Source: Candidatus Margulisiibacteriota bacterium
GTDB lineage: Bacteria > Margulisbacteria > WOR-1 > JAKLHX01 > JBAZKV01
Reading direction: 5' to 3'
Assembly: GCA_041650635.1 (NCBI GenBank)
Contig: JBAZKV010000008.1
Location: 2,253 to 66,252 of the forward strand
DNA: 64,000 nucleotides
Made by a program: the position numbers and the translations under genes. Below, one piece after another: positions 4,520-61,658 of this stretch (position 1 is the first letter of the stretch; each line of letters starts with the position of its first letter). A model generated the notes under the pieces. That model worked only from the letters and a program-made list of their open reading frames with translations. It was not told where the DNA came from and did not search any database.

Positions 4520-7033
4520 ATGTCAAATTACACCCCTAAAGAGATAGAGCCTCTCAGGCAAAGAGCCTGGCAGGAAAAAAAGCTTTTTGAAGCCGACAAT
4601 TCATCGAACAAGCCAAAATACTACGACCTCGTCATGTTCCCCTACCCTTCCGGCAAGATACACATGGGACATGTGCGAAATTATGCCATAGGAGATGTGC
4701 TCGCTAGGTACAAGAGGATGAAGGGTTTTAATGTCCTCCATCCGATCGGCTGGGACGCCTTTGGCATGCCGGCAGAAAATGCTGCCATCAAGAACAGCTC
4801 TCATCCCAGGGACTGGACCACAAAATGCATAGCGGACATGACCGTCCAGTTGAAAAGACTGGGACTTTCGTACGACTGGTCAAGGGAAGTGACCACCTGC
4901 AGAGAGGATTACTACAAGTGGACACAGTGGATCTTTCTGAAATTCTTTGAAAAAGGCCTGGCATACAGGAAAAAGGCAAAAGTGAACTGGTGCCCTAAAT
5001 GCGAAACTGTCCTGGCCAACGAGCAGGCAAAGGACGGAAAATGCTGGAGATGCGACAGCGCTGTTCGATCAAAGGACATAGAACAATGGTTCTTTAAAAT
5101 AACGCAGTACGCGCAAAGGCTCCTTGATGACATAGAAAAACTGGAAGGCTGGCCCGAGAGCGTTAGGATAATGCAGAGAAACTGGATAGGACGCTCCGAA
5201 GGAACAAGCATAGAGTTCGCTATAAAGGGTTTGGATAAGAAGCTTAAGATATTTACCACCAGGCCGGACACTCTTTTCGGGGTAACCTATATGACCCTTG
5301 CCCCAGAAAACCCGCTAACCGTAGAGTTGTCGCAAGGAACAAGACAGGAGAAAGAGGTCCTTTCCTATATAGAGAGCGTAAAAAGAAAGGACCCTTCGCT
5401 GCGCCAGGTGTCGGAAGAAAAGACCGGAGTGTTCACGGGGGCTTATGCGATAAACCCGGCCAACAACGAGACAATACCGATCTGGACTTCCGATTATGTC
5501 CTAATGGAGTACGGCACCGGCGCTGTCATGGCAGTTCCGGCCCACGACCAGAGAGATTTTGAATTCGCAAAAAAATTTGATCTTCCGATAAAAGAGGTAA
5601 TCGTTCCTAATGGTCCCTCACCCCGGCCTTTGGCCACCCCTCTCCCAACCCCTCGACTACGCTCGGGGCAAGAGGGAGAGGGGCCGGAGATCAGGGCGGC
5701 CTACACTCCCCCCGGCACCATGGTCAATTCCGCACAATTCAACGGCATGGACAGCAATAAGGCCATCGATGCAATAACCCTCTGGCTTGAAGAAAAAGGC
5801 ATCGGCAAAAAAGAGGTTAATTTTAAGCTGAGGGATTGGCTAATATCCCGCCAGAGGTATTGGGGTGCGCCTATTCCCATCGTATATTGCAATAAATGCG
5901 GGGCAGTTCCGGTACCGGATAAAGACCTTCCGGTAAAATTGCCCTATGATGTCAAATTCACGGGGGAAGGCGGTTCTCCCCTGCTGAAGGCTAAAGATTT
6001 TATCAGCACTGCCTGCCCCAAATGCGGCGGAAAGGCAAGCAGGGAAACCGACACGCTTGACACCTTTAACTGCTCCTCCTGGTATTTCTTAAGGTACACG
6101 AACACAGAAAAGGATTCTGACACGCCTTTTGAGCCAAAGGACCTCAAATACTGGCTTCCCGTAGACCAGTATATAGGCGGCATAGAACATGCGATATTGC
6201 ATCTTCTTTACTCAAGGTTCTTCTGCAAAGTTCTGAGCGACATGGGATTTATCCCTGTGGACGAGCCCTTTAAGAACCTTTTGACGCAGGGAATGGTGGT
6301 AAAAGACGGTGCAAAAATGAGCAAGTCCAAAGGCAATGTTGTTGATCCAGACTATATTATTGAAAAATACGGGGCGGACACAGCCAGGGTCTTTATCCTT
6401 TTTGCCTCTCCTCCGGAAAGGGAGCTTGAGTGGAGTGATGCGGGAGTTGAGGGGAGTTATAGATTTTTGAGCAGGATCTGGAGATTGATCAGCGACAATA
6501 AGCCCTCACCCCCTTCCCCTCTCCCAACCCCTCGACTACGCTCGGGGCAAGAGGTAGAGGGGCGCAGGACTGATGGGACCACCCGTATTCTTCACAAAAC
6601 CATAAAAGGTGTTTCAGAAGATATCGAGAGATTCTCCTTTAACACGGCGATCGCAAAGATAATGGAACTGCTTAACGCGCTTCAGGGTTCGCCTCTCGAT
6701 AAAAAGACCGCCGAGACGCTGCTTCTGCTGCTTTCCCCATTTGCTCCGCATGCAGCAGATGAGCTTTGGGAAAAAATAGGCAATACCGGAAGTACGCTGG
6801 AGCAGGACTGGCCGGGCTTTGATCCTGCTCTTGTTAAAGAAACCGAGATCGAGATACCAATACAGGTCAATGGAAAACTAAAGGACAGGATCATGATAGC
6901 AGCGGACCTGCCGGAGGAGCAGGTCAGGGAAAAAGCTCTTCAGTCAGAGAAGATAAAACAGTTGCTGCAGGGTAAAGAAATAGTAAAAGTTATATTTGCC
7001 AACAGAAAACTGGTAAATATAGTTGTCAGGTGA
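4520..7033 (+). CDS. leuS: Leucine--tRNA ligase
   Basis: [13 protein letters not shown] (HIGH), KMSKS, CP1 editing domain, YIGGIEHA. Confidence 0.98.
5615..5687 (+). repeat. Composite palindromic element in frame in leuS, copy 1
   Basis: CCCTCACCCC lead-in, outer CCCCTCTCCC/GGGAGAGGGG stem, inner 24-nt module at 5649-5672. Confidence 0.9.
6503..6562 (+). repeat. Composite palindromic element in frame in leuS, copy 2
   Basis: 6516-6562 matches 5637-5683 at 46 of 47 nt. Confidence 0.9.
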
Positions 7034-7040
7034 GTCCTGT

Positions 7041-8546
7041 CTAATCGTTAACCGTAAAATTCTCCAGCCTTAAATTCCCGCTAAGCGCTGGGTGAATGCA
7101 CATTTTGGTTGTACCTTCGGGTATCTTGAGGGAAACAGGCCCGTCCCGCCGCACCCTTTCGTCCGCCAGCACCGTATCAGTCCCAGAAGCATCATTTATG
7201 AATAATATCATTATTTCGCCTTTGATCTTAGATGCATCAAAGGCCAGTGTGCCCATAACAGCCCTGTCAAGGATAAAATAACCGCCGGCATCGTAATTGC
7301 CTTTTGGAGCGCTTATCTCGATCGCACCGTCTTCCAGCCTGAGCCTTGCACCTCCAAAAGCCCCCTGGGACAAGAAAAGGTCCTTAATATCGGCCCCGGA
7401 CTGCATATCCGGGACAATGGCAGCCGCCGGCTCCGATGCACCGGAATTCGGCTCCATGGGACTGGAAGAAAAGCTTCCGCTGTATTTTTCGAACTGTTCT
7501 CTCAGGCATCCGGTACCTCCATCTGTAATGGACCATATCCTTCTGCATCCCGTTTCTGTTTTTGTGGTATTAAAGTAGAACACCCCTGCCAGATCATCCT
7601 GAACTGCCAGTTCGAAAAGGCTTTTAAGGAACTGTGCCTCGCCCGCGGCTGAGCCCCCGTTGCCTTTGTCATATCCGGTCTCAAGTATCCAGAGCGGCTT
7701 TCCCGGATACAATTGCCTCATCAGTCCAATGGCCGGGCCAAACAGCGCCCTTGCATCCGCGGGGTTTCCTGTCCAGTCGGTACTGTAACCGTCCAGGCCT
7801 ATTCCGTCAACATATCTGTCCCCGGGATAATACGCCGAAGGATCTGTCCCAACATTTGGGTTCCAAAGCCAGGTCGCATATTTATTGGCCCCCGCTCTTT
7901 CAAATGTTTCCCACACATGGATGTAGGCTTCTTTGTATAATTCAGGATGCCCCGCCCAAGGATACCAATCGCCGTTCATTTCGTGGCCAAAGGTCAAAAG
8001 CATTGGGGTATTTTGTGCGGCAAGCCCGGCAGCAAATTTTGCCAGCCCGGTATCAAATTTGCCCGCGATAAGGTTCTCAAGACTGAAGGAATTATCCGAC
8101 TTGCCCTTCCAGCTCCACGGCTCCAGTTTTATAAGCGAAGCGATACCTTTTTGGCGCAAGACACTGACCGTTTCTGAAGGGAAATCAAATCCCTTGCCGA
8201 AGGCGTGAAACTGCAGTACCATGTCAAGATTCCCGCCTATCAGGCTGTTGAACCGGGAAACGCCGGCCGGGGAAAGAGCATCATCCAAAAAGGCCCCAAA
8301 ATAGATACCGTTAGGAGTTATCAGGTTCCTGGCTGGAGTCGCCTCCATCTGGGGCATTCCTCTCTGGATCTCACTGGCAGGAACAGGAACTTGGGGACGG
8401 GGCCTTTCACAGGAGGTAAGGCTCCCGGCTAAAAAAGCAGCCGGAAGTATTAAACGTCCGGATCTATACAAAGACGCCAAAACTGAATTGGATGTTCTCA
8501 TAACAGAGGTTTCATCTCCCTGTTTATTTGTCGGCATTTCCCTCAT
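7041..8546 (-). CDS. Glycoside hydrolase family 26 protein, probable lipoprotein, with C-terminal beta-rich extension
   Basis: FGHEMNGDWYPW, GLDGY, WILETG catalytic motifs; LTSC lipobox-like segment. Start uncertain (8546, 8537 or later). Confidence 0.8.
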   Translation of the reverse strand: MREMPTNKQGDETSVMRTSNSVLASLYRSGRLILPAAFLAGSLTSCERPRPQVPVPASEIQRGMPQMEATPARNLITPNGIYFGAFLDDALSPAGVSRFNSLIGGNLDMVLQFHAFGKGFDFPSETVSVLRQKGIASLIKLEPWSWKGKSDNSFSLENLIAGKFDTGLAKFAAGLAAQNTPMLLTFGHEMNGDWYPWAGHPELYKEAYIHVWETFERAGANKYATWLWNPNVGTDPSAYYPGDRYVDGIGLDGYSTDWTGNPADARALFGPAIGLMRQLYPGKPLWILETGYDKGNGGSAAGEAQFLKSLFELAVQDDLAGVFYFNTTKTETGCRRIWSITDGGTGCLREQFEKYSGSFSSSPMEPNSGASEPAAAIVPDMQSGADIKDLFLSQGAFGGARLRLEDGAIEISAPKGNYDAGGYFILDRAVMGTLAFDASKIKGEIMILFINDASGTDTVLADERVRRDGPVSLKIPEGTTKMCIHPALSGNLRLENFTVND

Positions 8547-8578
8547 ATGATTTCAGCTTTTTATAGTATAATTCAAAC

Positions 8579-9310
8579 ATGAATGTTGCAAAAAAACGCT
8601 CCTCAAAAAGGAGGTCTCGCCGCACAGATACCGTAAAAGCGCTTTCCGAAATAAGCCGCACTATCACTTCGGATCTTTTGATAGAGGACATTCTTGCTTC
8701 GATAGTGGAAGTAACCGCGAAATTGATGGGCTCCAATATCTGCTCCATTTTTCTTCTGGACAGCGAAAAAAACCTGCTGGTGAACAAAGCGTCCCAAAGC
8801 GTAAGCGCACTCTATAACAATAAGCCCCCGCTAAAGGCTGGCGAGGGTATCGCGGGAAAGGTGCTTTTGCTCAACAAGCCCGCCGCCGTTAAGGATGTCA
8901 AAAAAGAGCCGGAGTACAAATACAGGGACATCGCCAAAAAAGAGGGGCTATGCTCTCTATTGTGCGTGCCCCTGGCGGTAAAAGGAAAGGCTATCGGCGT
9001 TATCAACTCCTATACTTCCAAACCTCATGCTTTTACAGGGACAGAGATCGAGGTCCTTAGCGCGATAGCATCGCTTGCGGCAATGGCCATAGAGAACACA
9101 GGCCTGCTGATGAAGGCAAAAAGCGTTGAGGAAGAGCTGCAATCGCGCAAATCTATCGAAAGGGCCAAAGGGATCCTTATGAGGGACGAGGGGCTTTCCG
9201 AAGAGGACGCTTATCTGAGGATACAAAGATTCTCTATGGACTCGCGCAAGACCATGAGAGAGATTGCAGACTCCCTTATCCTGAGTTATAATCTTAGAAG
9301 GCTCAGGTGA
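8579..9310 (+). CDS. GAF + ANTAR domain RNA-binding regulator
   Basis: GAF (LLCVPLAVKGKAIGVIN) followed by ANTAR (IERAKGILM..LSEEDAY..IQRFSMDSRKTMREIA). Confidence 0.92.
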   Translation: MNVAKKRSSKRRSRRTDTVKALSEISRTITSDLLIEDILASIVEVTAKLMGSNICSIFLLDSEKNLLVNKASQSVSALYNNKPPLKAGEGIAGKVLLLNKPAAVKDVKKEPEYKYRDIAKKEGLCSLLCVPLAVKGKAIGVINSYTSKPHAFTGTEIEVLSAIASLAAMAIENTGLLMKAKSVEEELQSRKSIERAKGILMRDEGLSEEDAYLRIQRFSMDSRKTMREIADSLILSYNLRRLR

Positions 9311-9313
9311 ACC

Positions 9314-10714
<1,401 letters not shown>

Positions 10715-10739
10715 CTCTTTCTAAAGGTCCTGGCTCCAA

Positions 10740-10766
10740 GGGGCGGGTTTTCCCGCCCCTTTTTTT
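10740..10766 (+). terminator. Rho-independent terminator after gdhA
   Basis: GGGGCGGG-TTTT-CCCGCCCC followed by T7. Confidence 0.88.
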
Positions 10767-10849
10767 GCTTTCGATACCCAATTCCTGAAATTCCAAAAAA
10801 TATCCTTCGACAACTTCTTGTGAACAGCATAATCACAAAGGAGAAATAG

Positions 10850-18005: not shown

Positions 18006-19079
18006 TTATACTATTTTTTCTGCTTCCAGCCTTGCCCACTTTTCCGCTTCAAGTATCTGACCGAGTTTGGGACTCTTGATAAACCTGTGTTTTTTCATAA
18101 CGGAAGAAACTATCCCGGGAATGTCATAAAACCCTATCTTTGCATTTAAGAACAGCTCCACCGCGGTATCGTTGGCTGCAGACAGGACAGCAGGAAGGGT
18201 CCCTCCAGTTTTCCCCGCCTTGTATGCAAGTTTAAGGCACGGGAATCTGTCAGTGTCCGGCTTTTGAAATGTGAGCTCGCCCGTTTTTGCAAGATCAACG
18301 CTGCCGTACGATCTGGGCTGCCTGTTCGGGTATGTCAGAGCATATTGTATCGCCGTTCTCATATCCGGAACCCCTATCTGGGCAAGAACGGAGCCGTCCA
18401 CAAATTCGACCATTGAATGTATCACGCTTTGGGGATGAACAACAACCTCGATCTTTTCATAAGGTATGCCAAAAAGATGGTGAGCTTCTATTACTTCTAA
18501 TCCCTTATTCATGAGCGTGGCACAGTCTATAGTTATCTTTGGCCCCATTTTCCAGGTCGGGTGCTTCAGCGCCTGTTTTGCCGTTACTTTGGAAAGCTGC
18601 TTTTTAGAATATTTGCGGAAGGGACCTCCGGATGCGGTAAGTATGATCCTCTTTATTTTTTTATTTGGACATTGGGAATTGGACATTGGGAATTGGACAT
18701 TATTCTGGGCTTCTCCCTGAATACACTGAAACACCGCGCTATGCTCGCTATCCAGCGGCAATATCTGCGCCCCATATCTTTTTGCCTCCGCCATAACAAC
18801 ATCTCCCGCAGCAACCAGTATCTCTTTGCTGGCAAGGGCAATGGTCTTTCTCTTTTTTATGGCAGCAATAACGGCAGCAAGCCCGGCGGTCCCGACAATG
18901 GCCATTACAACAATATCGGTTTTGGGGTCGGAGGCTATTTTTACAAGGCCTTCTCCGTCATTGTGGCCTAGATAGGCAAGCCCTGACACGCGGAATAAAG
19001 AAGGAAAGGCAGACACCACATCAAGCGCCTGCCTCCCTATAGATCCCGTTGAACCAAGTACCGCGATCCCCTTTTTCAT
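18006..19079 (-). CDS. dxr: 1-deoxy-D-xylulose 5-phosphate reductoisomerase
   Basis: LGSTGSIG, LASKE, PLDSEHSA, LTASGGPF, HPTWKMGPKIT, NKGLEVIEAH. Confidence 0.95.
   Translation of the reverse strand: MKKGIAVLGSTGSIGRQALDVVSAFPSLFRVSGLAYLGHNDGEGLVKIASDPKTDIVVMAIVGTAGLAAVIAAIKKRKTIALASKEILVAAGDVVMAEAKRYGAQILPLDSEHSAVFQCIQGEAQNNVQFPMSNSQCPNKKIKRIILTASGGPFRKYSKKQLSKVTAKQALKHPTWKMGPKITIDCATLMNKGLEVIEAHHLFGIPYEKIEVVVHPQSVIHSMVEFVDGSVLAQIGVPDMRTAIQYALTYPNRQPRSYGSVDLAKTGELTFQKPDTDRFPCLKLAYKAGKTGGTLPAVLSAANDTAVELFLNAKIGFYDIPGIVSSVMKKHRFIKSPKLGQILEAEKWARLEAEKIV
18665..18699. repeat. Heptamer tandem tract inside dxr
   Basis: TTGGACA/TTGGGAA alternating, 5 units; encodes VQFPMSNSQCP. Confidence 0.88.
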
Positions 19080-24243: not shown

Positions 24244-25821
24244 ATGGCCGAAGCAAAAAAAGACCGCTGGAGTTCAAAATTAGGAGTTATCCTTGCAGTT
24301 GCGGGCTCTGCCGTCGGGCTGGGGAACTTTCTGCGGTTCCCTTCGCAGGCGGCAAACAACGGCGGCGGCGCTTTCATGATCCCATACTTTATCTCCCTTC
24401 TTCTGATCGGTATTCCTCTTATGTGGATCGAGTGGTCTATTGGAAGGTACGGCGGAGTGCACGGGCATTCTACCGCTCCGGGAATGCTGCACCGACTTTG
24501 GAAGCACAGACTGTCTAAATATTTTGGGGTTATCGGCATCTTCGGTCCTCTGGTTATTTTTATCTATTATGTCTACATCGAATCCTGGCTCTTGGGTTAC
24601 TGCTACTACTCTCTGACAGGACTTTTGACCAGCCTTCCGGACAAGACCTCTATGGCACAGTTCCTAGCAGGCTATCAGGGTCTTGCTTCAAACCAATATT
24701 TTAACGGCATTTCTTCGGCATATATCTTTTTTGCCATAACCTTTGCGCTAAACATGTGGATAATCTTCAGGGGCGTTTCAAAAGGGATAGAGCTGCTATG
24801 CAAGGTGGCCATGCCGGCGCTTTTTATAGCCGCTGTTATCATCCTGCTTAGAGTGGTAACGCTGGGCGCCCCCGACCTTGCCAGGCCGGACTGGAACATA
24901 TTTAACGGTTTCGGGTTCTTATGGAACCCTGACTTTTCCGCACTTCTTAGCGCCAGGACCTGGCTTGCGGCCGCAGGACAGATGTTCTTTACGCTTAGCG
25001 TGGGGATAGGCGTTATCCTGACTTATGCAAGCTATCTTAAAAGGGGCGATGACATAGCTCTTTCGGGGTTGTCGGCGGCTTCGACAAATGAACTGGCAGA
25101 GGTGATCCTGGGAGGGAGCATAATAATTCCTCTTGCCTTTGCTTTTTTCGGGCCGGACGGCATAAAGGAGATCGCCTCAAGCGGCACATTCAATCTCGGC
25201 TTTATTACAATGCCTCTCATCTTTTCCAAGATATCATTCGGGGCTGTTTTCGCCTTCTTGTGGTTCTTTCTTCTTTTCTTGGCGGGACTGACCTCTTCTG
25301 TTTCGCTTATTGAGCCGACAGTAGCTTTTGTCCGGGACGATTTTAAGCTTTCCAGAAAAAAAGCTGCCTCGTTCGTTGCCGCAGCAACTTTCATCCTGTG
25401 CCAGCCGGTCATATTCTTTTTTGGCAGAGGTGTTTTGGATGAGATGGACTTCTGGGGAGGGACCTTCTGCCTGGTCCTGTTCGGCACGGTAGAGGCTCTG
25501 CTGTTAGTCTGGGCTTTCGGCATCGACAGGGCCTGGGAAGAGATCCATCACGGAGCTCAGCTCAGGATCCCTGGGTTCTACAAATGGATCATTAAATATG
25601 TCACGCCTTCGCTTCTACTGGCTATCCTGATCTCCTGGTTCGTTCAGCAGGGCTGGTCGACCATCCTAATGAAAGGCGTTGACCCCGCAAATGCGCCTTA
25701 CATCCTTTGGACTAGGATCGGCTTGCTGTCGGTCTTTTTTGCTCTGGCGCTGCTGGTAAGGATATCCTGGAAAAGGGCTTCGACCCCCTCCGCTGGCTCA
25801 GCCCAAGGAGAAGAAAAATGA
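24244..25821 (+). CDS. Sodium-dependent transporter, NSS/SNF family
   Basis: GSAVGLGNFLRFP, GGGAFMIPY, W..AAGQMFFTLS; many TM segments. Start MAEAKK at 24244. Confidence 0.93.
   Translation: MAEAKKDRWSSKLGVILAVAGSAVGLGNFLRFPSQAANNGGGAFMIPYFISLLLIGIPLMWIEWSIGRYGGVHGHSTAPGMLHRLWKHRLSKYFGVIGIFGPLVIFIYYVYIESWLLGYCYYSLTGLLTSLPDKTSMAQFLAGYQGLASNQYFNGISSAYIFFAITFALNMWIIFRGVSKGIELLCKVAMPALFIAAVIILLRVVTLGAPDLARPDWNIFNGFGFLWNPDFSALLSARTWLAAAGQMFFTLSVGIGVILTYASYLKRGDDIALSGLSAASTNELAEVILGGSIIIPLAFAFFGPDGIKEIASSGTFNLGFITMPLIFSKISFGAVFAFLWFFLLFLAGLTSSVSLIEPTVAFVRDDFKLSRKKAASFVAAATFILCQPVIFFFGRGVLDEMDFWGGTFCLVLFGTVEALLLVWAFGIDRAWEEIHHGAQLRIPGFYKWIIKYVTPSLLLAILISWFVQQGWSTILMKGVDPANAPYILWTRIGLLSVFFALALLVRISWKRASTPSAGSAQGEEK
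25776..25807 (+). repeat. Variant TCGAC..GCTC module encoding the NSS C-terminal tail
   Basis: GGCT-TCGAC-11 nt-GCTC-AGCC-CAAG; stem differs from the leuS copies but still pairs. Confidence 0.6.
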
Positions 25822-28921: not shown

Positions 28922-30916
28922 CTATCCCAGGTTAACGGGATCAACATCAACGCTCAGTCTTATCTGCCTGTTCTTTGACAGGACAGCAACCATCTCTTTG
29001 AGCTTTGATTTAATGATAGCCAAATCCTGTCCCTTAATCAACATCTGATATCTGACCATACCGCGAAGTTTTTCCAGAGGGGCTTTTACCGGCCCCAGTA
29101 TCTCTATTGTCCGATCAAAGGCTTTGAGCTGCGAACAAATCTGCAGCGCCTCTTGCCTTACCGCCTCCCGGTCTTTTCCGGAGAGTATCACATTGATCAG
29201 GAAAGAGAACGGAGGATATCCGAAATCCTTTCTGGACATTATCTCCGTGGCATAGAACTTTTTGTAGTCCCCTTCCACCGCGCTTGTGACGGCATAATGC
29301 TGAGGATTAAGGGTTTGGATCACAACCCTGTCCGGAGGTATAGCGTTGTTATCTCCTGCGGTTATACGAAAAAGGAAGTCGAACGCGGACTCGGCCGCCC
29401 GAAAGTCGGGAGAGTTCAGTGCTGCGTCCGCCGAGATCACCGCGACAAGCCCGAACTTCTTTTTTGGCAGGGCCTTTAGCACCATCTGCGTCCCTATAAG
29501 CACCTGCGCTTCGTCCTTTACAAAGGCCTCAAGAGCTATCGAAGCGTTCTTTTTGGAACTGAGGTTGTCCCTGTCTATCCTTATGGTCCTGACCTTCGGG
29601 AACAGTTTTCCTATCTCGGATTCTATCTTCTGGGTCCCCGCACCGAAATAATTGATCGAATGGCTGAAGCATTTAGGACACACGATCTTTTTTTCCGAAA
29701 GAAAACCGCATCTGTGGCACCTGATAGTGCCATCCGGAGAATGATATGTAAGGGAAAGCGAACAGTTGGGACATTCTATCGCATTACCGCAGGCGCCGCA
29801 GACCAAAAATGGTGCGTATCCCCTCCTGTTCTGGATCAACATTACCGGCTTTTGTTCATCAAGCGATCGCGCTATCTCTTCCTTTAGAACTGAGCTTAAC
29901 TGCCTTGACCTTTCTTCCTTTGTGTCAACAACAAGGATCTCCGGCTTGCTGTCATTGACGATTTGATCTTTCTCGCTAAAAAAATACTTTCCGTTCTGAG
30001 CCCTAAAAAAAGACTCTACGCTTGGGCTTGAAGAGCTCAGGATCAACCGGGCGGACAGTTTTTCTGCCATGAACAAAGCGGTATCCCTAACATGGTATTT
30101 GGGGGTCTGCTCGGATTTATAGGTGAACTCGTTTTCATCCTCAACAATAATAAGTCCGGGATAGTGCACGGGCGCAAATATCGCGCTTCTTGTCCCTATG
30201 GCTATTTTTGCTTTCCCCAGGTACAGCCTTTCCCATTCACAAAACCTTTCTTTTTCGGTCATATTGCTATGGATAACGGCAACAATATCTCCGAAGTTCT
30301 TTTTGAATTCTTCCACGAACCGGTTGTCATGGCCTATCTCGGGCAGAAGCAGTATGACCCCCCTGTTTTCTGAAAGGGTTTTCTGGGCCTCTTTAATGTA
30401 TGTACCCGTCCTTTCTGACAAACCCGCATTAAAAAGCAGGACAGGCTTCCCAGCATCTTTCTTAGTTTGTTCTTTGGGAATTGGAAATTGTTTGCCCCGA
30501 TCCCTGTCGAGGGGGAAATTGCTTGCCCCGAGCCCTGTCGAGGGGGAAATTGGAAATTCTATCCTTCTCTTCCCCGCCGTCTTCTCATAAGCCTCTATCC
30601 CCGGAGGAAGGAACAGCCTTAGGGCGCTGCCGAACAGGCAGCAGTAGTAAAAAGAGATCCACTTTGCTGTCTCAACTGAGCGTCGGGAAAACAGAGGAAC
30701 TCTGGTCCTTATCTCAAGTATTTCTTTAAGGCGCTCTACCCCGGCTGGGGCTTCTTTTGAAATAGCCGTGATATAGCCGACCGCTTTTGCCCTGCCAAAA
30801 GGGATAAGCACCTGAATCCCGACAGCAGCTCTTGAGGTTGATTCCGCAGGGATCTTATATGTATATTCTTTGTCGGTCTGGGGAGAAACCTTGGAAAGGA
30901 CTACCTGGACATACAT
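28922..30916 (-). CDS. priA: Primosomal protein N' (PriA)
   Basis: LLPEI, GTRSAIFAP, NRRGYAP, Cys-rich zinc motifs, GTQKIE, VDVDP terminus. Walker A region looks degenerate. Confidence 0.9.
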   Translation of the reverse strand: MYVQVVLSKVSPQTDKEYTYKIPAESTSRAAVGIQVLIPFGRAKAVGYITAISKEAPAGVERLKEILEIRTRVPLFSRRSVETAKWISFYYCCLFGSALRLFLPPGIEAYEKTAGKRRIEFPISPSTGLGASNFPLDRDRGKQFPIPKEQTKKDAGKPVLLFNAGLSERTGTYIKEAQKTLSENRGVILLLPEIGHDNRFVEEFKKNFGDIVAVIHSNMTEKERFCEWERLYLGKAKIAIGTRSAIFAPVHYPGLIIVEDENEFTYKSEQTPKYHVRDTALFMAEKLSARLILSSSSPSVESFFRAQNGKYFFSEKDQIVNDSKPEILVVDTKEERSRQLSSVLKEEIARSLDEQKPVMLIQNRRGYAPFLVCGACGNAIECPNCSLSLTYHSPDGTIRCHRCGFLSEKKIVCPKCFSHSINYFGAGTQKIESEIGKLFPKVRTIRIDRDNLSSKKNASIALEAFVKDEAQVLIGTQMVLKALPKKKFGLVAVISADAALNSPDFRAAESAFDFLFRITAGDNNAIPPDRVVIQTLNPQHYAVTSAVEGDYKKFYATEIMSRKDFGYPPFSFLINVILSGKDREAVRQEALQICSQLKAFDRTIEILGPVKAPLEKLRGMVRYQMLIKGQDLAIIKSKLKEMVAVLSKNRQIRLSVDVDPVNLG
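30474..30558. repeat. Heptamer tract interrupted by two 24-nt hairpin modules inside priA
   Basis: TTGGAAA units; two are split TTG|24 nt|GAAA, with inserts at 30491-30514 and 30522-30545. Confidence 0.85.
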
Positions 30917-42222: not shown

Positions 42223-42270
42223 AGAGCAGGAGAGCACAGAGAGCAGGAGAGCGCGGAGAGCAAGAGTAGG
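42223..42270 (+). repeat. AGAGCAGG-like tandem repeats upstream of the four-helix-bundle gene
   Basis: About 6 imperfect 6-9-nt units running into the AGGAGG RBS. Confidence 0.85.
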
Positions 42271-42279
42271 AGGTGAGAA

Positions 42280-42624
42280 ATGTCTAATTATAGAAAGCTT
42301 ATTGTTTGGCAAAAAGCGGACAAGCTCGCTACCCTTATATATGAGGCTACAAAATGTTTTCCAAAACATGAACTATTTGGGATAACTTCTCAACTTAGAA
42401 GATCTGCTTTGTCGGTTCCAACTAATATAGTAGAGGGCTATAGCAGAAAGAGCAGAAAGGAATTTAAACGCTTTATTGATATAGCACTTGCCTCACTTTG
42501 CGAATCCGAATATTTGCTGTATTTTTGCAAAAATATTGGTTATTTACATCAAGACACATCAAACATTGATAATCTGCTCACAGAAACGGACCGACTGTTA
42601 TGGAGTTTCTATTTAAACCTGTAA
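42280..42624 (+). CDS. Four helix bundle protein (23S rRNA IVS-protein/Avd-like family)
   Basis: YRKLIVWQKA, FPKHELFGITSQLRRSALSVPTNIVEG, EFKRFIDIA. Confidence 0.93.
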   Translation: MSNYRKLIVWQKADKLATLIYEATKCFPKHELFGITSQLRRSALSVPTNIVEGYSRKSRKEFKRFIDIALASLCESEYLLYFCKNIGYLHQDTSNIDNLLTETDRLLWSFYLNL

Positions 42625-42627
42625 GAA

Positions 42628-42730
42628 AGAGCGAGAGAGCAAGAGAGCAGAAGAGCAAGAGGGAAAATCCAATGTATAAAGGATTCTCATCCCGCTCCTG
42701 CTCTCCCATACTCCTGCCCTCCTGCTCTCC
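42628..42730. repeat. Direct AGAGCNAG octamers followed by complementary CTCCTGCTCTC tracts
   Basis: Purine tract 42628-42662; pyrimidine tract 42694-42730. Confidence 0.85.
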
Positions 42731-42749
42731 TATGTTATAATTACTTATC

Positions 42750-44380: not shown

Positions 44381-45695
44381 GGTCCCTTGCCAGGGTGGCA
44401 GGATCGCACGAAACATAAATAATCCTTGAGGGTTTAAGTTTAATTACAGATCCTATGACCCCCTGTGAGCACCCCGATCTTGGCGGATCCAGCACAACGA
44501 CATCAAATTTGGCATCGGTGTCCAAGAACTGCCTGATAATAACCTCTGAAGTCCCGCATTTAAAGAATGCGTTCTTTATGCCGTTTACCCCGGCATTTTC
44601 TTTTGCATCATCAATGGCATAATTATTTTCTTCAACGCCCCAGACCTCCTTGGCTTTTTTGGCCAGCCAAAGAGATATTGAACCGGTACCGCAATAGAGG
44701 TCAAGAACTGCTTCTTTACCCGAAAGAGAGGCAAAGTCTTCAACAACAGAATACAATTTGAGCGTTTGAACGGGATTGATCTGAAAAAATGACTTGGCAG
44801 AGATCTTGAACTCTAAAGGCCCGAGTTTTTCCTTTATCTTTTCCTGCCCCCACAATGGCTTTGTCTTTTCGCCAAGGATGACATTGGTGGACCGGCGGTT
44901 TTCATTCACCACAACACCTTTAAGGCCAAACTCCTTTTCCTCCTGCTCAATACTTTTTGTTAATGCGCTTACCAGATTTCTTGACCCTGGGATATTTATT
45001 TCTTTAGCCACAAGGCACAGGATGGCTTCTTTGGATGTAAACCCCACCCTTGCCAGGACATGCCTTATCAAACCACTGCCCCTGTCTTCGTCATAAACAG
45101 GAATATTGAAGTCGCTTATCAGCTTTTTAACAGCATTGGAAATCTTATTCAAAAAAGGATGCAGAACAAGACAATTATCAATATCAACTATCTCATGCGT
45201 TCCTTTCTTAAAATACCCCATTGCCACCATCAGCTGTTTGGAATTTGTAATTTGTGATTTGTTTAGGATTTTGGATTTAGGATTTAGGATTTTCCTGACA
45301 GGGTACTGCACTTTATTCCTGTACCCCCAGGGATCTTCCATGCCTACGACGGGCCTCACCACTTCCGGAGAGATCCCTCCGATCTTTTTCATTGTGTCTT
45401 TAACTATCTGTTCCTTTAATTTTAACTGTGCGCTGTATTCTATGTGCTGCATGTCGCAAGCCCCGCACTTTTCAAAATACTTGCACGGCGGCTGCACGCG
45501 GGACGGTGAAGCGGTAAGGATCTTATGTATCTTTGCGCGGCAATAATGTGATTTTGCTTCAGCTATCCTTATCTCGAGTTCGTCTCCGGGAACACCGTTA
45601 TCGACAAATACCGTCATCCCGTCTATGCGGGCTATCCCCTGACCTCCTGCGGCCAGAGTCTCTATTTTTGCTTTAACTATCTGTCCCTGTTGCAT
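44280..45695 (-). CDS. rlmD: 23S rRNA (uracil-5)-methyltransferase RlmD
   Basis: TRAM domain, C..FEKCGAC, SFFQIN, DLYCGTG, DPPRSG, YVSCDPATLARD, DMFPHT. Confidence 0.94.
   Translation of the reverse strand: MQQGQIVKAKIETLAAGGQGIARIDGMTVFVDNGVPGDELEIRIAEAKSHYCRAKIHKILTASPSRVQPPCKYFEKCGACDMQHIEYSAQLKLKEQIVKDTMKKIGGISPEVVRPVVGMEDPWGYRNKVQYPVRKILNPKSKILNKSQITNSKQLMVAMGYFKKGTHEIVDIDNCLVLHPFLNKISNAVKKLISDFNIPVYDEDRGSGLIRHVLARVGFTSKEAILCLVAKEINIPGSRNLVSALTKSIEQEEKEFGLKGVVVNENRRSTNVILGEKTKPLWGQEKIKEKLGPLEFKISAKSFFQINPVQTLKLYSVVEDFASLSGKEAVLDLYCGTGSISLWLAKKAKEVWGVEENNYAIDDAKENAGVNGIKNAFFKCGTSEVIIRQFLDTDAKFDVVVLDPPRSGCSQGVIGSVIKLKPSRIIYVSCDPATLARDLKLFSGKYKTVKIQPVDMFPHTAHIECVAHLSR
45237..45289. repeat. 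Heptamer tract inside rlmD
   Basis: TTTGGAA TTTGTAA TTTGTGA TTTG TTTAGGA TTTTGGA TTTAGGA TTTAGGA; encodes ILNPKSKILNKSQITNSK. Confidence 0.88.
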
Positions 45696-54145: not shown

Positions 54146-54175
54146 ATGCTAACTCTAAACCCTTTATCTTGTCAA
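54146..54175 (-). promoter_or_regulatory. Possible sigma70 promoter for the beta-barrel gene
   Basis: TTGACA-18 nt-TAGCAT on the minus strand. Confidence 0.5.
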
Positions 54176-54188
54176 GGGCCGCAAACCG

Positions 54189-56599: not shown

Positions 56600-56625
56600 A
56601 TCATTACCTCCCGCGATCAAGTTTG

Positions 56626-57696
56626 CTAACTAATTTTAGCATATCTTTTATAGAACGGCAGTTTTACCATTTTTGAGGGGTGCAGTTTCTCCCTGATCTG
56701 CACGGTTATTTCTCCATCCGGTAAAACAGAGCCCGGCTCGACATATCCCATAAAGACCGGCTTTTTCAGAGTCGGGGAAAATGTCCCGGATGTTACAGCT
56801 CCGATCTTTCTGCCTTTTGATATCAATACGCAGCCCTGTCTGGCTATAGCCTTGTCCAGGACTTCAAATCCGGAGAGCACTTTACTTATGCCTGAGGCTC
56901 TCTGCTCCTCCAGAGCTTTTTTCCCGGTAAATTCGCTTTTTCCAAGGTCAACGGCAAAAGAGAGGCCTGCCTCAAGAGGCGTTGTATCTTCGTCCAGTTC
57001 ATGGCCGTAGAGCGGGAGTCCCGCTTCAAGCCGCAGGCTGTCCCTGGATCCCAGGCCGCACGCTTTTGCGCCTTCAGAAATGAACCCGTCCCACAGCCGG
57101 GATGCATAAGACCTGTCAAAAAAGAACTCAAAGCCGTCCTCTCCAGTATACCCTGACCTTGAAGCAAATACCTCTACCCCCAGGACCTCCATCCATACAC
57201 AATCCCTGTGCTTTAAAGCGGAAAGGTCGGTCTTGGTCAGTTTTTGCACAATAGAAGCCGCCTGAGGCCCCTGGATGGCCACAGCGGTGCTTGAATCATA
57301 GAGTAGTTTGAACTTTTTTGAACTGCGGCAAAAATGCGAAAAAACCCTGTCCGCGTTGGAGGCATTGGCTATCACCAGAAATTCGCTCCCGGTCCTGTAA
57401 ACAAGGATGTCGTCCAGGATGCCTCCTCTTTCGTTAAGGACAAAAGAATACTGCGCGCGGTTGTCCTTTAATTTGGCCAGGTCATTGGAGGTAAGCCTCT
57501 GCAAAGCGTCAAAGTCGTCGGTCTTTATCTGGCCCATGTGCCCTATATCAAAAAGCCCGCAGCCCTGTCTGGCGTAATTGTGCTCTTCGATTATGCCTGT
57601 ATACTGTACCGGCATGACCCAGGAGGCAAAGTCCACCATTTTGGCCCCGAGCCTTAAGTGCTCTTGATAAAGCGCTGTTCTTTTTGGCTCGGACAT
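56626..57696 (-). CDS. gcvT: Glycine cleavage system T protein
   Basis: DFASWVMPVQY, FDIGHMG, SGYTGEDGFE, RDSLRLEAG. Confidence 0.95.
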   Translation of the reverse strand: MSEPKRTALYQEHLRLGAKMVDFASWVMPVQYTGIIEEHNYARQGCGLFDIGHMGQIKTDDFDALQRLTSNDLAKLKDNRAQYSFVLNERGGILDDILVYRTGSEFLVIANASNADRVFSHFCRSSKKFKLLYDSSTAVAIQGPQAASIVQKLTKTDLSALKHRDCVWMEVLGVEVFASRSGYTGEDGFEFFFDRSYASRLWDGFISEGAKACGLGSRDSLRLEAGLPLYGHELDEDTTPLEAGLSFAVDLGKSEFTGKKALEEQRASGISKVLSGFEVLDKAIARQGCVLISKGRKIGAVTSGTFSPTLKKPVFMGYVEPGSVLPDGEITVQIREKLHPSKMVKLPFYKRYAKIS

Positions 57697-57697
57697 C

Positions 57698-58783
57698 CTA
57701 AAGTATTTCCCTTAATGATCTGATGAACTCCCTGTTCTGGAAGGGTTTGCCGATCGTGACCCTTATCGCCGTGGGAAGGCCGAACGAGTTTAGAGGCCTT
57801 ATTATTATCCCCCGCTGCATCAGTTTGACAAAGACCTCTTCTGCGTTCCTTTTGAGATCTATATAAATAAAATTCGCCTGGGTCTTTAGAAAGCTGAGCC
57901 CTAGTTTCGACAGTTCTTTATACAGGTATTTTTTGCCCAGGGAATTGTTCTTAATGCTTTTTTTGACGAATTCCGCGTCGTCAAGCGCTGCCAGTGCGGC
58001 GATCTGACCGATACGGTTCACATTGAACGGCATTTTGACCAGATTAAGGCACTCTATAAGTTTTTTGCTGGCAACTCCGTACCCCACGCGCAATGCGGCA
58101 AGCCCGTATATTTTTGAAAAGGTCTTAAGAACGATCAGATTATCATATTTGCCTATCAATCCGGCAGCAGAAGTGAATTCTTCTCTCTCGCAATAGTCCC
58201 CGTAAGCCTCGTCAACGACCACTACTGTGTCTTTAGAGACTTTAGACAATAGATCTTCTATCTTTCCTGCGGCTACTATCGTTCCTGTCGGATTGTTGGG
58301 ATTGCATAGAAATACCAGCTTTGTTTTACTGTTTATCTTTTCCACAAATCCGTCAATATCGTAAGCATGGTCTTTTAAGACTACATGAAGCGGCTTGCCG
58401 TCCATAAGTTTAGTCACAAATTCGTAGACACTGAAAGTATTATCGGACAGAACGGCTTCCTGCCCTGCGCTAAGGAAAGTCTGCGCGATCAAAAGCATGA
58501 TTTCATCAGAGCCGTTGCCAACCACAAAATTATCGGGAAGAAGGCCGAACTTGTCTGCCAGCGCGTTCCTTAGAGGAACATGGTGCTGGTCGGGATATTT
58601 TGAGGACTCTTTGAGGGCCTTTTTAGCAGCACTTAAAGCCTTTGGGCTGGAGCCGAGGGGGTTTTCGTTGGAGGCAAGCTTTATAACACTGCTTAAGCCG
58701 AACTCTTCTTTGACATCCTCTTCCTGCTTGCCGGGGATATATTTCGAAAGGTTCTTCAGGCAGTCTCTTGCCAGCTGGCTCAT
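57698..58783 (-). CDS. hisC: Histidinol-phosphate aminotransferase
   Basis: KLASNENP, GNGSDE, NPNNPTG, DEAY, TFSKIYGLA. Confidence 0.93.
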   Translation of the reverse strand: MSQLARDCLKNLSKYIPGKQEEDVKEEFGLSSVIKLASNENPLGSSPKALSAAKKALKESSKYPDQHHVPLRNALADKFGLLPDNFVVGNGSDEIMLLIAQTFLSAGQEAVLSDNTFSVYEFVTKLMDGKPLHVVLKDHAYDIDGFVEKINSKTKLVFLCNPNNPTGTIVAAGKIEDLLSKVSKDTVVVVDEAYGDYCEREEFTSAAGLIGKYDNLIVLKTFSKIYGLAALRVGYGVASKKLIECLNLVKMPFNVNRIGQIAALAALDDAEFVKKSIKNNSLGKKYLYKELSKLGLSFLKTQANFIYIDLKRNAEEVFVKLMQRGIIIRPLNSFGLPTAIRVTIGKPFQNREFIRSLREIL

Positions 58784-58806
58784 GACAAAAAGATTATATC
58801 ACATCC

Positions 58807-60171
58807 TCATCTGGGCTCCCGTCTTCTTATTTTCACTTTCTTTTTATCGCCGTGAAGCTTGTAATAACTCTTGATGGTCTCCTTCTTTATTACCGCACCG
58901 TTCTTCTTGACGGTCCTTGTCACCGTGGTCCAGAACGCTCCTGTCTGCACCAGTTTTTCCTCAGGGACCTCGGAAGTCGGATCTTTTGTTGTCACTATCT
59001 CATATCTGTATCTTATTGCCGCAGGAGAAAAAGATACTGTCTTGCCCGAGGGAGCACCTATGATCCTGAAGGTCAGCCCTTTCTTGAACGGAACAGCCTG
59101 TATCACGACAGGATGCCCGGTATTGTTCCTGAGCTTTAGGTCCGTGGAAGGAGGATAGATCGTAGCGTCCCTTCCCAGAGGGTAGATGGAAAAATACATG
59201 CCGTGGTTCCTTCTGTTAACTATCTCAAGGTCCGCCATGAGGGCGCTGTTATAGAGAGTGGTGGCTATCTGGCACGCCCCTCCGCCGTATTCCGGCACCA
59301 GTTCATCCCCAATGATCACATAAGCCTCTTTAAAACCTCTTTCCCCTGTGAACTCGCCTATAAGAGGAAGGAGCGAAAAAACTTCGCCGGAGGCCAGAAA
59401 GGTATTATCGACAAATGAGGATACCAGATAGATGTTGGAGATCCTGTTTGGCGAATCATGGGTCCCATAGTAGGTGGTGTAACTGCCGATGACCTCGGCG
59501 CTGGGAATGCTCTGGAGCATCTCCCGGCTTATCCTGGGACGGGCCAGATCGAGTATTACAGCAGACTCCAAAGCTCCATTTTCCAGAGAACTTTTTAGCA
59601 GCAGCCTAGTCTCTTCTCGTTTCAACTGTCTGCCTGTAGTGTGCGGTCTTATGGACACCCTGGTCCTTCCCGACGGGTCCTTTGAGATCAAAAATCTCGC
59701 GTTCTCTTTGTCCCTGTCAATATAAGAAGCCACCTGGGCGATAAGGGCCTTCAAATGCAGTTCATTTGCCACCTTCATGACAGGAGGGACCTCTCTCCTT
59801 TTCCTGCCAAGCCCGTAAGAAATCCTGCCCAGATAGCCTTCTCTCTGGGAGATCTGTATTACCCTGTCAACTGATTCTTCCGGAAAAAGTATCAGACCGG
59901 CCTGCGAGGGCTTGAACTCGTACCTTATCTGGCGTTTGTCCTCTTCCAGGACAAGCGCGGGAAGTCTTTCTATAACACTGTCCGCTTCAAAAGTCGAAAG
60001 TCTTAAAACCGCCTCCTGCCTGGTAAGGCCGCTCACCGGCACACTGCCTATGTAAAAGCCCTGATCGATCCTTTCTTCCATATAGAACCGGTCGCCAAAA
60101 TAGGCGCCAAAAACGACCGCGGAAATGATAAGAATAAGGAGCGCTGCTTTTATGAGAGGGTGCTTCTTCAT
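58807..60171 (-). CDS. VanW family protein
   Basis: N-terminal TM, NRISNI, YGGGACQIATTLYN, GRDAT, DLKLRN. Confidence 0.9.
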   Translation of the reverse strand: MKKHPLIKAALLILIISAVVFGAYFGDRFYMEERIDQGFYIGSVPVSGLTRQEAVLRLSTFEADSVIERLPALVLEEDKRQIRYEFKPSQAGLILFPEESVDRVIQISQREGYLGRISYGLGRKRREVPPVMKVANELHLKALIAQVASYIDRDKENARFLISKDPSGRTRVSIRPHTTGRQLKREETRLLLKSSLENGALESAVILDLARPRISREMLQSIPSAEVIGSYTTYYGTHDSPNRISNIYLVSSFVDNTFLASGEVFSLLPLIGEFTGERGFKEAYVIIGDELVPEYGGGACQIATTLYNSALMADLEIVNRRNHGMYFSIYPLGRDATIYPPSTDLKLRNNTGHPVVIQAVPFKKGLTFRIIGAPSGKTVSFSPAAIRYRYEIVTTKDPTSEVPEEKLVQTGAFWTTVTRTVKKNGAVIKKETIKSYYKLHGDKKKVKIRRREPR

Positions 60172-60194
60172 GTCCTGCTATTTTCCGTATAAAT

Positions 60195-60225
60195 AAAAAA
60201 CCCCGAACTGCTTCGGGGTTTTTTT
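60195..60225. terminator. Bidirectional-type terminator after tuf
   Basis: AAAAAACCCCGAA-CTGC-TTCGGGGTTTTTTT. Confidence 0.88.
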
Positions 60226-60242
60226 ATCATCTGTTAGACAAC

Positions 60243-61442
60243 CTACTCTATTATCTTGGAAACTACGCCCGCCCCGACCGTGTGCCCGCCTTCCCTGATG
60301 GCAAAACGCAGGCCTTCTTCTATGGCTATGTCTGTTATCAGTTCCACTTTCATGACGATGTTGTCGCCCGGCATGACCATCTCCACTTTATCGGGAAGCT
60401 GGATAGCCCCGGTAACATCGGTGGTCCCCACATAGAACTGCGGTCTGTAGCCCGGGAAGAAAGGAGTGTGCCTTCCGCCTTCTTCTTTGGTTAGAACATA
60501 TATTTGGGCCTCGAACTTCTTGTGAGGCTTGATGGAACCTGGCTTTGCAAGGACCATGCCTCTCTGGATATCATCTTTTTCTATGCCCCTGAGAAGGATG
60601 CCTACGTTGTCCCCGGCCAGACCTTCGTCCAGGGTCTTCCTGAACATCTCTATACCGGTGACAATACTCTTTTTCTGGCTCCCGAGCCCGATTATTTCCA
60701 CCTCATCTCCTACCTTGACCTTGCCTCTACCTATCCTGCCTGTTCCCACAGTGCCTCTGCCGGTGATCGTAAAGACATCTTCGATCGGCATAAGGAAAGG
60801 TTTATCAAGATCTCTCTTCGGGTCGGGAATGTAGGAATCAAGAGCGTCCATCAGCTCATATATGGATTTGCACCACTGGCAGTCGGATTTTCCGCAGCCG
60901 CATTCAAGGGCCTTTAACGCGGAGCCTTTGACGAACGGTATCTTATCGCCGTCAAATTCATATTTCTTCAGGAGCTCTCTTGTCTCCACTTCCACCAATT
61001 CCACCAGTTCCTTATCGTCGACCATGTCCACCTTGTTCAGATATACGACGATGGAAGGGACATTGACCTGTTTGGCAAGAAGGATGTGTTCTCTGGTCTG
61101 GGGCATGGGGCCGTCGGCGGCGCTCACCACAAGTATGGCTCCATCCATCTGGGCGGCTCCGATGACCATGTTCTTAACATAGTCGGCGTGTCCGGGGCAG
61201 TCTATGTGAGCATAATGTCTTTTATCTGTTTCATATTCCACATGGGCGATAGCGATCGTAATACCTCTTGCTTTTTCTTCCGGTGCGCTGTCGATCTCGT
61301 CAAAGGCCTTTGCCTTGGCATAACCTTTTGACGACATCGTTTTTGTGATGGCCGCGGTCAGGGTGGTCTTTCCGTGATCGACATGCCCGATCGTCCCGAC
61401 ATTTACATGGGGCTTTTTCCTCTCAAACTTTTCTCTTGCCAT
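60243..61442 (-). CDS. tuf: Elongation factor Tu
   Basis: [28 protein letters not shown]. Confidence 0.99.
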
Positions 61443-61514
61443 TTTGTTTCCTCCTTGATTTTAATACTGAAATTATATTATACCATAATGCCAGCGTCAA
61501 TGGCCCCGCGCAAC

Positions 61515-61587
61515 AGCCCGCGATCGGGATTGAACCGATGACCTCGTCATTACCAATGACGTGCTCTACCAACTGAGCTACACGGGC
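61515..61587 (-). tRNA. tRNA-Thr (GGT), CCA not encoded
   Basis: Cloverleaf folded by hand: GCCCGTG/CGCGGGC acceptor, CGTCA-TTGGTAA-TGACG, TTCAATC T-loop. Directly upstream of tuf. Confidence 0.96.
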
Positions 61588-61658
61588 ACCTCGACTCCTC
61601 GCTTACGCTCGTCGCTCGGTACAAGCCTGCCCTGAGCGAGCGCTAGCGAGTCGAAGGG
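61587..61658. repeat. Two oppositely oriented, loop-expanded TCGAC..GCTC modules
   Basis: 61587-61625 (39 nt) and 61626-61658 (33 nt); they encode the RlmN tail and stop codon. Confidence 0.8.

Follow-up and report, generated by a model that had tools for sequence, protein, structure and literature searches.

Why the housekeeping genes of a bacterium should carry copies of a 24-nt hairpin, some of them inside the reading frames of essential proteins, is the question raised by a 64000-nt stretch of DNA from Candidatus Margulisiibacteriota bacterium (GenBank assembly GCA_041650635.1, contig JBAZKV010000008.1; positions 2253–66252 of the forward strand), referred to here as the window. The genes found in the window are housekeeping genes (leuS, ilvD, the gene for an SNF symporter, fmt, def, priA, coaBC, rlmN, tRNA-Thr and tuf), and the hairpin, referred to as the module, was located in the leucyl-tRNA synthetase (LeuRS) gene (two copies), in priA (two copies) and at the 3' ends of the SNF symporter gene and rlmN. 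Its consensus is YCCY-TCGAC-TNC-GCTC-RGGR-CARG, and its anatomy and mobility signature are solid. The answer favoured here, with a probability of about 0.5, is that the module is a very small non-coding element resembling repetitive extragenic palindromic (REP) sequences, which acts as single-stranded DNA and has an Ssn-type nuclease behind its spread.

Seven copies had been claimed by an earlier examination of the DNA without database searches (the sequence-only reading), and rereading of the window together with a pattern scan found all of them present:

5649–5672, forward strand: module copy 1, CCCC-TCGAC-TAC-GCTC-GGGG-CAAG, in frame in the LeuRS gene (peptide PRLRSGQ)
6528–6551, forward strand: module copy 2, same sequence as copy 1, at LeuRS site 2
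25776–25807, forward strand: module copy 3, GGCT-TCGAC-(11 nt)-GCTC-AGCC-CAAG, at the 3' end of the SNF sodium symporter open reading frame (ORF), whose C-terminal tail ASTPSAGSAQGEEK it forms
30491–30514, reverse strand: module copy 4, degenerate, as copy 5 but with GATC for GCTC and CAAA for CAAG, in the PriA linker
30522–30545, reverse strand: module copy 5, CCCC-TCGAC-AGG-GCTC-GGGG-CAAG, in the PriA linker
61587–61625, forward strand: module copy 6, CACC...GGTA with 3/4 stem pairs and a long loop, antisense to rlmN
61626–61658, reverse strand: module copy 7, CCCT-TCGAC-(12 nt)-GCTC-AGGG-CAGG, forming the C-terminal tail TLRLASARSGQA of RlmN

The core was said to deviate in one copy only (GATC, at 30491), and this was borne out, although the CAAA tail of the same copy had gone unmentioned. 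The bare core TCGAC..GCTC was not enriched in the window (9 observed, 9.2 expected). The core together with a 4/4 stem was matched 5 times against 0.065 expected from 200 dinucleotide shuffles, and one further window copy had the core with 3/4 stem pairs (0.57 expected from such shuffles). When up to two mismatches over the 13 fixed core and tail bases were allowed, 6 matches were observed against 0.1 expected in shuffles; this relaxed scan added only the degenerate PriA copy 4, and no copy beyond the seven was found in the window. The seven copies do not represent seven independent events, as copies 1 and 2 belong to one 48-nt composite repeat that is near-identical at both LeuRS sites, copies 4 and 5 to one array, and copies 6 and 7 to a diverged tail-to-tail inverted pair with a common expanded loop. 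Copy 6 extends across the stop codon of rlmN and lies directly against the first base of tRNA-Thr.

The stem had been reported to covary around an invariant core. Within the window alone the support for covariation is weak, but it was strong in larger samples collected with the stem left unconstrained, namely a scan of viral contigs (58 matches) and a scan of metagenomes (129 matches, 123 distinct rows). In the viral contigs, a 4/4 stem was present in 20 of the 58 matches, where about 0.2 were expected, and the perfect stems were TACT, TGGT, CGCT, TCCT, CCCT and CCCC. Among the metagenome matches, 80 of 129 were fully paired and 28 more had 3/4 pairs, with 11 stem types represented. On the 123 distinct rows, 86.6% of cells were paired against 72.6% after shuffling, and two-sided stem changes were seen in 70 cells against 21.5 in shuffles; all four pairs covary, and none of 500 shuffles reached the observed value for pairing or for two-sided changes. 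The module thus appears to be selected for structure, as had been proposed. A shifted register suggested by folding for the CCCC stems was rejected, as the covariation data contradict it.

With the loop left free in the scan, 79 of 121 copies had TNC (GNA on the other strand), where chance would give about 7.6. Of 105 copies, 100 have a pyrimidine at position 25, and the base before the module is often an A. The opposite strand reads as a CYTG tag, a 4-bp stem, tandem G.A/A.G mismatches, a G:C and a C:G pair with a bulged T, and a GNA triloop. The tandem mismatches described earlier for the GAGC..GTCGA strand had been read correctly. No Rfam family was found on the module in gathering-score and permissive scans of the window and 20 element-rich loci; the matches elsewhere in those scans were to tRNAs, SRP RNA, Acido-Lenti-1, a group II intron and chance miRNA-like sequences only. 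In L228, two Acido-Lenti-1 RNA matches (RF01687, above the gathering score; 6899–6944 and 9977–10022) are only a few kb away from two copies of the module and do not overlap them. Mimicry of a tRNA T-arm or D-arm, a hammerhead, a kink-turn, an integron attC site and the nick sites of rolling-circle plasmids were also considered and dropped, because the likeness extended to 4–6 bases only or a required feature (the 3-nt bulge, CUGAUGA, the R/L boxes) was missing.

Judged by the best relatives of its LeuRS, the window comes from the Margulisbacteria/Saganbacteria (WOR-1) lineage. The module is not confined to Margulisbacteria. An exact scan for CCCCTCGACNNNGCTCGGGGCAAG, using one genome per species, recovered at least 120 stretches with unrelated flanks, and the 24-mer is therefore a free-standing unit. 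The phyla among the matches listed were Acidobacteriota, many Patescibacteria, Margulisbacteria, Cyanobacteria, Zixibacteria, Omnitrophota, Nitrospirota, Planctomycetota, Myxococcota and others, and a Sphingomonas isolate was also among them. A BLAST search of plasmids and chromids of cultured strains located the module at 23–27 places per replicon in Sphingomonas parapaucimobilis, and identified Trichlorobacter lovleyi, Nostoc, Planktothrix, Pseudanabaena, Microcystis and Anabaena as further carriers. A version with a different tail (GGCT-TCGAC-TTC-GCTC-AGCC-TGAACG) occurs in Sphingomonas. In Acidobacteria-like contigs (L268, L190, L224 and L245), the module was seen to recur inside a larger conserved composite, ..GCCGAGC.GCTCGGC..GGA-[24-mer]-CTCGCGAGGGCGCCCG.CCCCAC, and in L268 an inverted pair of this composite (4250–4340 and 5000–5090) brackets a CYTH-like gene.

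The sequence-only reading had further suggested that the module can move and tends to land inside other repeats. Both suggestions were supported. Excision of exactly 24 nt brings back the phase of the heptamer arrays in which copies are embedded (21/21 positions twice in L015 and 19/21 in L276), while other lengths gave 17 or fewer, and the phase was likewise restored on direct reading in L093, L089, L066 and the PriA array of the window. The excision is seamless, with no target duplication. Besides the heptamer arrays, copies occupy the apex of palindromes of the CCCCTCTCCC/GGGAGAGGGG, CCCTCTCCC and GTAG types, occur in head-to-tail 24-nt arrays, and in one case (L191) a copy lies within the loop of a copy on the opposite strand. 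The surroundings of the LeuRS and PriA copies in the window, which illustrate this nesting, are as follows:

5637–5683, forward strand: host palindrome of copy 1, CCCCTCTCCC-aa[module]a-GGGAGAGGGG, read directly
6516–6562, forward strand: palindrome around copy 2, CCCCTCTCCC..GGTAGAGGGG, its arms differing by one mismatch
5608–5697, forward strand: strain-specific block at LeuRS site 1, 90 nt in the window, in place of which the close strain L001 has 48 nt of unrelated sequence
30477–30559, reverse strand: heptamer array (CAATTTC)n with copies 4 and 5, arranged as 2 units, module, 1 unit, module, 2 units

Copies 1 and 2 are located in two variable loops of LeuRS. Without the 24-mer, the palindrome at 5637–5683 is a 10-bp stem with an AAA loop, and the module sits at its apex. 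The same composite, CCCCTCTCCC-aa[module]a-GGGAGAGGGG, is also present in L002 and L209, and the LeuRS copies probably arrived within this larger composite and not as bare 24-mers. A comparison of empty and filled alleles had been proposed as a check. An ortholog that is 79% identical (P0002) lacks the 17 residues of site 2, and in L001, a strain with 94–97% DNA identity, a different element, the GTAG-tagged palindrome GTAGCGAC..GTCGCTAC, takes the place of the 90 nt at site 1; L001 keeps the site 2 composite with one stem pair broken (GGGT). The element at site 1 in L001 includes a GTAG-tagged REP, GTAGCGACACCGCATGCGACGTCGCTAC (8800–8828), and the peptides at this loop in orthologs P0003, P0004, P0005 and P0007 are VETPHAASL, GAQYIAP, GAHGRAP and PSPPGRGDGGEG. 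The site 1 loop of LeuRS is thus a hot spot for hairpin insertions, relatives holding different palindromic repeats there. In priA, the 31-nt tandem period arises because the module (24 nt) is joined to one heptamer (7 nt), and PriA orthologs are about 20 residues shorter at the array site.

A clue to what might mobilise such a unit came from the Ssn family, small single-domain GIY-YIG nucleases (Chenal et al. 2025, PMC11893778). The Ssn proteins of Neisseria and Wolbachia bind their own oriented hairpin repeat (NTS/SRM, tag CGTCA) and cleave single-stranded DNA only, on one strand and just upstream of the motif (PMC11893778). An SRM is a hairpin of 20–50 nt, found in many phyla, oriented by a 5' tag that is conserved and non-palindromic; most ssn genes are flanked by SRM hairpins, and the repeats reach up to hundreds of copies (PMC11893778). 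The module is an oriented hairpin in the same sense, the CARG tail being conserved beside the covarying stem and the sequence being asymmetric. At locus L191, an ssn gene was found to be flanked on both sides, by GTCA-CCCC-GAGC-GCA-GTCGA-GGGG-TC and GTCA-TGTC-GAGC-(13 nt)-GTCGA-GACA, hybrids that combine the GTCA tag with the exact GTCGA core of the module. When loci were chosen by the protein alone, GTCA-tagged hairpins flanked 7 of 8 ssn loci on plasmids and chromids, and at the loci from four further lineages both sides of the gene carry GTCA-NNNY-GAGC-GNA-GCGA-RNNN-TC, whose stems (TTCT, TCCT and TGCT) covary. At L284, a locus chosen for the element, two tandem hairpins of the GTCA/GCGA class with the stem CCCT precede the ssn gene, and in Sphingomonas a gene for a 106-residue GIY-YIG (Ssn-like) protein is surrounded by the TGAACG-tailed version of the module. 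No GAGC-core hairpins were found at 37 viral-contig loci with Ssn homologues.

In 2.09 Mb of element-selected DNA, the GTCGA core was accompanied by the tag CTTG 173 times, CCTG 66 times and GTCA 4 times, and the GCGA core by CTTG once, CCTG never and GTCA 12 times; a CTTG or CCTG tag was present in 239 of 253 GTCGA-type hairpins. Two sibling hairpin classes therefore share genomes, hybrids between them being rare, and one such hybrid flanks an ssn gene. Recognition by a protein, which had been put forward earlier, now has a plausible partner in Ssn, as near-identical hairpins flank these GIY-YIG genes. The Ssn proteins are 68–77% identical across metagenome-assembled genomes (MAGs) of Chloroflexota, Nitrospirota, Burkholderiales and Actinomycetota, and conservation between phyla so distant would explain a hairpin core shared across phyla. 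Ssn-type GIY-YIG proteins of about 95 residues (P0241–P0360) with this level of identity were also seen in MAGs labelled Deltaproteobacteria, Binatia, Caldilineales and 'Aquicultor', a distribution that suggests frequent horizontal transfer of the gene. In L305 (4992–5276), L307 (4989–5282) and L303 (4992–5276), ssn stands alone between housekeeping or defence genes, its neighbours being gltA/lpxB in S. meliloti, sufB/sufC in Azospirillum and MmeI/DrmA of the DISARM system in Planktothrix. Such isolated placement is the pattern expected of a selfish insertion.

The favoured reading starts from what was observed, namely the anatomy of the module, the covariation of its stem, the exact length of the unit, its nesting, its spread across phyla and the kinship of its core with ssn-flanking hairpins, and joins these in one mechanism, of which the nuclease partner and any insertion step are what we infer. 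The active strand is most likely 5'-CYTG, stem, GAGC, GNA, GTCGA, stem'-3'. It would fold into a 4-bp stem with no fixed sequence, the 4-nt tag before it staying unpaired; beyond the stem come two sheared G.A/A.G pairs, then two G:C pairs from which a T bulges, and at the end the GNA triloop. An Ssn-type nuclease specific for the CYTG tag would recognise this class and drive its spread. The module has entered its sites as exactly 24 nt and without target duplication, and on the TCGAC strand the next base is usually a pyrimidine. The sites are in DNA prone to become single-stranded or folded, namely heptamer arrays, palindrome apices and other copies of the module. Carried further, this gives the tentative proposal that the CYTG-tagged 24-mer is the smallest known mobile DNA unit, spread across bacterial phyla by a new Ssn clade, or by some other enzyme acting on hairpins, whose tag specificity would be new, through duplication-free insertion into transiently single-stranded DNA, which would time and again add 8-residue segments to essential proteins; we regard this as possible and on balance doubtful.

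Several observations weigh against an Ssn-type partner for the module. CYTG-tagged copies were seen to flank neither an ssn gene nor any other nuclease gene, and the genes enclosed by CYTG-tagged inverted pairs were ordinary ones only (CYTH-like and ThiL-like), the sole clean pair of this kind enclosing the CYTH-like gene. The 64-kb window contains no GIY-YIG ORF, and an ssn gene was present at none of 7 Margulisbacteria loci. Small, more distant GIY-YIG genes of the candidate phyla radiation (CPR) type do occur near some copies and have no flanking hairpins, for which reason they are set apart as a different subfamily in a different context; in L090 (~1520–1620), L075 (~3470–3560) and L266 (~945–1095), such a gene was seen by eye to be followed directly by apparent tRNA genes. 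The published SRM search pattern, HGTCWYN(0-2)YYVSBRHN(0-5)WNVSBRGN(0-2)RNCYNB (PMC11893778), matches the NTS and a Shinella hairpin and matched neither the module, nor the GAGC-core hairpins that flank ssn genes, nor any site in the window. As the pattern misses the GAGC-core hairpins at L311, L317, L318, L323, L324 and L284, the published figure of 71% of ssn genes having flanking motifs may be too low.

The enzyme itself adds to these points. To our knowledge, Ssn acts only as a nuclease, and we know of no joining or insertion activity demonstrated for it, even with canonical SRMs. Its cut falls a few bases 5' of the motif. Nearest-neighbour folding of each copy as DNA and as RNA predicted no unusual stability (z −1.2 to +1.3). 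GNA triloops closed by C:G with a sheared G.A pair form unusually stable DNA minihairpins, and this kind of stability is not captured by the nearest-neighbour model used.

Other explanations were weighed against the same evidence. That the module is a classical REP mobilised by a RAYT, or by a Y1 (HUH) transposase of the IS200/IS605 type, which likewise recognises an imperfect hairpin in single-stranded form together with the 4-nt tag on its 5' side, is suggested by the shared architecture of a tetranucleotide tag and an imperfect hairpin with an extrahelical base, by the inverted doublets in Sphingomonas and at 61587–61658, and by the occurrence of known REPs within genes (PMC3733652). However, the module tag is CYTG and not GTAG, REP/RAYT pairs are usually lineage-specific whereas the module core is the same across phyla, and the genes flanked by the identical core are GIY-YIG genes instead. 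A phmmer search of 2.1 Mb around elements found no Y1 transposase, though with the IS200 TnpA probe used this is a weak test with low sensitivity for RAYTs. On this evidence a RAYT or Y1 origin is unlikely. Spread without any dedicated enzyme, through host replication and repair (template switching or slippage at folded single-stranded DNA) with persistence due to intrinsic minihairpin stability, appears similarly improbable. It would fit with targets that are slippage-prone or hairpin-forming, with the lack of a target duplication, and with the high stability in DNA of C:G-closed GNA triloops with sheared G.A pairs. Template switching nevertheless leaves 13 identical core bases in unrelated phyla unexplained, and the unpaired CARG tail is conserved and changes by lineage, to YGAACG in Sphingomonas, which points to sequence-specific recognition.

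The orientation and frame of the copies bear on two further explanations. Among 273 copies, 93 lie in the sense orientation in long ORFs, 65 are antisense and 78 are outside long ORFs, with all frames used, and the presence of both orientations and all frames argues against a role at the level of RNA or peptide. A functional RNA hairpin (a terminator, an mRNA stabiliser or a protein-binding site) under selection in transcripts would account for the stem covariation, the TCGAC strand is the sense strand in 6 of the 7 window copies, and many REP-type repeats are transcribed (PMC3733652). This sense bias shrinks in the larger sample, where most copies are in ORFs and every frame is represented, and in the window the better-structured strand is usually antisense. 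The Rfam scans gave no match, a U-tract is absent, and the copy in L001 is already short of one stem pair, so that a functional RNA is very unlikely. Selection on a peptide repeat such as PRLRSGQ has in its favour that an RSGQ-type peptide occurs in LeuRS and RlmN and that the similar GSAQG ends the SNF ORF. It is already contradicted by frame usage, as the PriA copies use two other frames and all six are used elsewhere; many copies are intergenic or in heptamer arrays, and what is conserved is the DNA, in which stem changes compensate one another. We consider it hardly credible.

The module had also been called frame-preserving. This stands in that 24 is a multiple of three, and fails in that PriA copies 4 and 5 are read in two different frames, with only the array as a whole in frame. 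The common version with the CCCC stem and TTC loop proved on direct reading to be free of stop codons in all six frames, and some variants add one. Because stops are few and the length is a multiple of three, essential proteins can keep copies in their surface loops and at their ends. Frame preservation is thus a product of the 24-nt length, the scarcity of stops and purifying selection on the host gene, and is not a design feature. The module fits a selfish DNA element tolerated in protein loops and tails.

Some other features of the window were recorded. The PriA protein of this lineage (28922–30916, reverse strand, in the window) lacks a Walker A motif, with NAGLSERTGTY at the position where a 66% identical homologue (P0122) has NMGPTKRINYY and relatives have GxxGSGKT, and there are no precomputed DEAD or Helicase_C Pfam matches to it, unlike more distant PriA proteins. 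It may be an ATPase-dead primosome protein. Heptamer or 14-mer arrays without a module at 18665–18701 and 45235–45292 (TTGGACATTGGGAA; TTTGTAA, TTTAGGA) are potential empty targets. The ORF at 42280–42624 encodes a four-helix-bundle '23S rRNA intervening sequence protein' (PF05635, E 8e-35), and is flanked by AGAGCAAG/AGAGCAGG 8-mer arrays at 42223–42266 and 42628–42661, with the complement of these 8-mers, CTCCTGCTCT, at ~42690–42731. The region 42223–42731 has the look of a small cassette that carries repeats of its own.

These findings have consequences beyond the window. The module is a DNA element whose anatomy, exact length and target preferences are defined, and it gives rise to short 'junk' peptides in predicted proteins. 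Peptides of this kind, such as LRLRSGQA and PFDFAQGK, appear to be common in predicted proteins from soil, groundwater and candidate phyla. Masking the 24-mers would improve gene calling and protein alignments in MAGs, and the presence or absence of a copy could act as a strain marker. The favoured reading predicts that Ssn-type enzymes reading the CYTG tag and the GAGC-GNA-GTCGA core should exist. If it is true, these would provide new specificities for a family proposed as tools for cutting single-stranded DNA. On the more tentative proposal of a new Ssn clade, Ssn would have a role in generating repeats and protein insertions beyond that of restricting transforming DNA. The findings also bring the very small mobile repeats known from cyanobacteria, and the palindromes that lie in frame in Rickettsia genes, together with the Ssn single-strand nucleases reported in 2025.

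No earlier description of a CYTG tag with a GAGC-GNA-GTCGA core was found in the accessible literature, and a literature search with the module sequence gave unrelated primer matches only. The module was therefore compared with known systems of small repeats. The small dispersed repeats (SDRs) of Nostocaceae, attributed to Elhai et al. 2008, are reportedly hairpin repeats of 21–27 nt with compensatory changes, said to be embedded in heptamer repeats and other small elements and to show evidence of recent insertion. The module is alike in length, in being a hairpin with compensatory changes, in its embedding in heptamers and small elements, and in insertion polymorphism. SDRs are reported to be confined to a few cyanobacteria, as cited in PMC5861425, whereas the module is found in many phyla.

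The Rickettsia palindromic elements (RPEs), attributed to Ogata et al. 2000, are said to be ~100–150 bp long and to lie in frame within conserved protein genes. The module resembles them in being palindromic and in adding a surface peptide in frame to conserved genes, but it is 24 nt long and crosses phyla. RPE-4 and RPE-6 are CGTC-tagged REPs (PMC3733652), a group with a CGTC tag, a stem of 8–9 bp starting with A/T pairs, a loop of 4–5 nt and a CCA tail (Di Nocera 2013, PMC3733652). The module, in contrast, has a 4-bp stem, a conserved internal loop and a 3-nt loop, and lacks the CCA tail. With REP and REPIN sequences served by RAYTs (PMC3116915, PMC3733652) it shares a tag joined to an imperfect palindrome of 20–40 nt, occurrence as singletons and inverted doublets, occasional in-frame genic copies and insertion into other palindromes. 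It differs in a tag that is neither GTAG nor CGTC, nor the GTGG alternative of RAYT-type REPs, in the 4-bp stem with its conserved internal loop, and in that no RAYT was found with the low-sensitivity probe. It is also distinct from a miniature inverted-repeat transposable element, having neither terminal inverted repeats like those of insertion sequences nor a target-site duplication.

The remaining comparison is with the SRM hairpins of the Ssn system. The module tag is CYTG where that of an SRM is (C)GTCA, and relative to the hairpins that flank ssn genes the module has an extra bulged T (GTCGA as opposed to GCGA) and is without the 3' TC. Like SRMs in general, it is a short hairpin oriented by a conserved 5' tag that stays unpaired, and it recurs in many copies across many phyla; with the ssn-flanking subclass it has in common a variable 4-bp stem, GAGC, a GNA loop and CGA.

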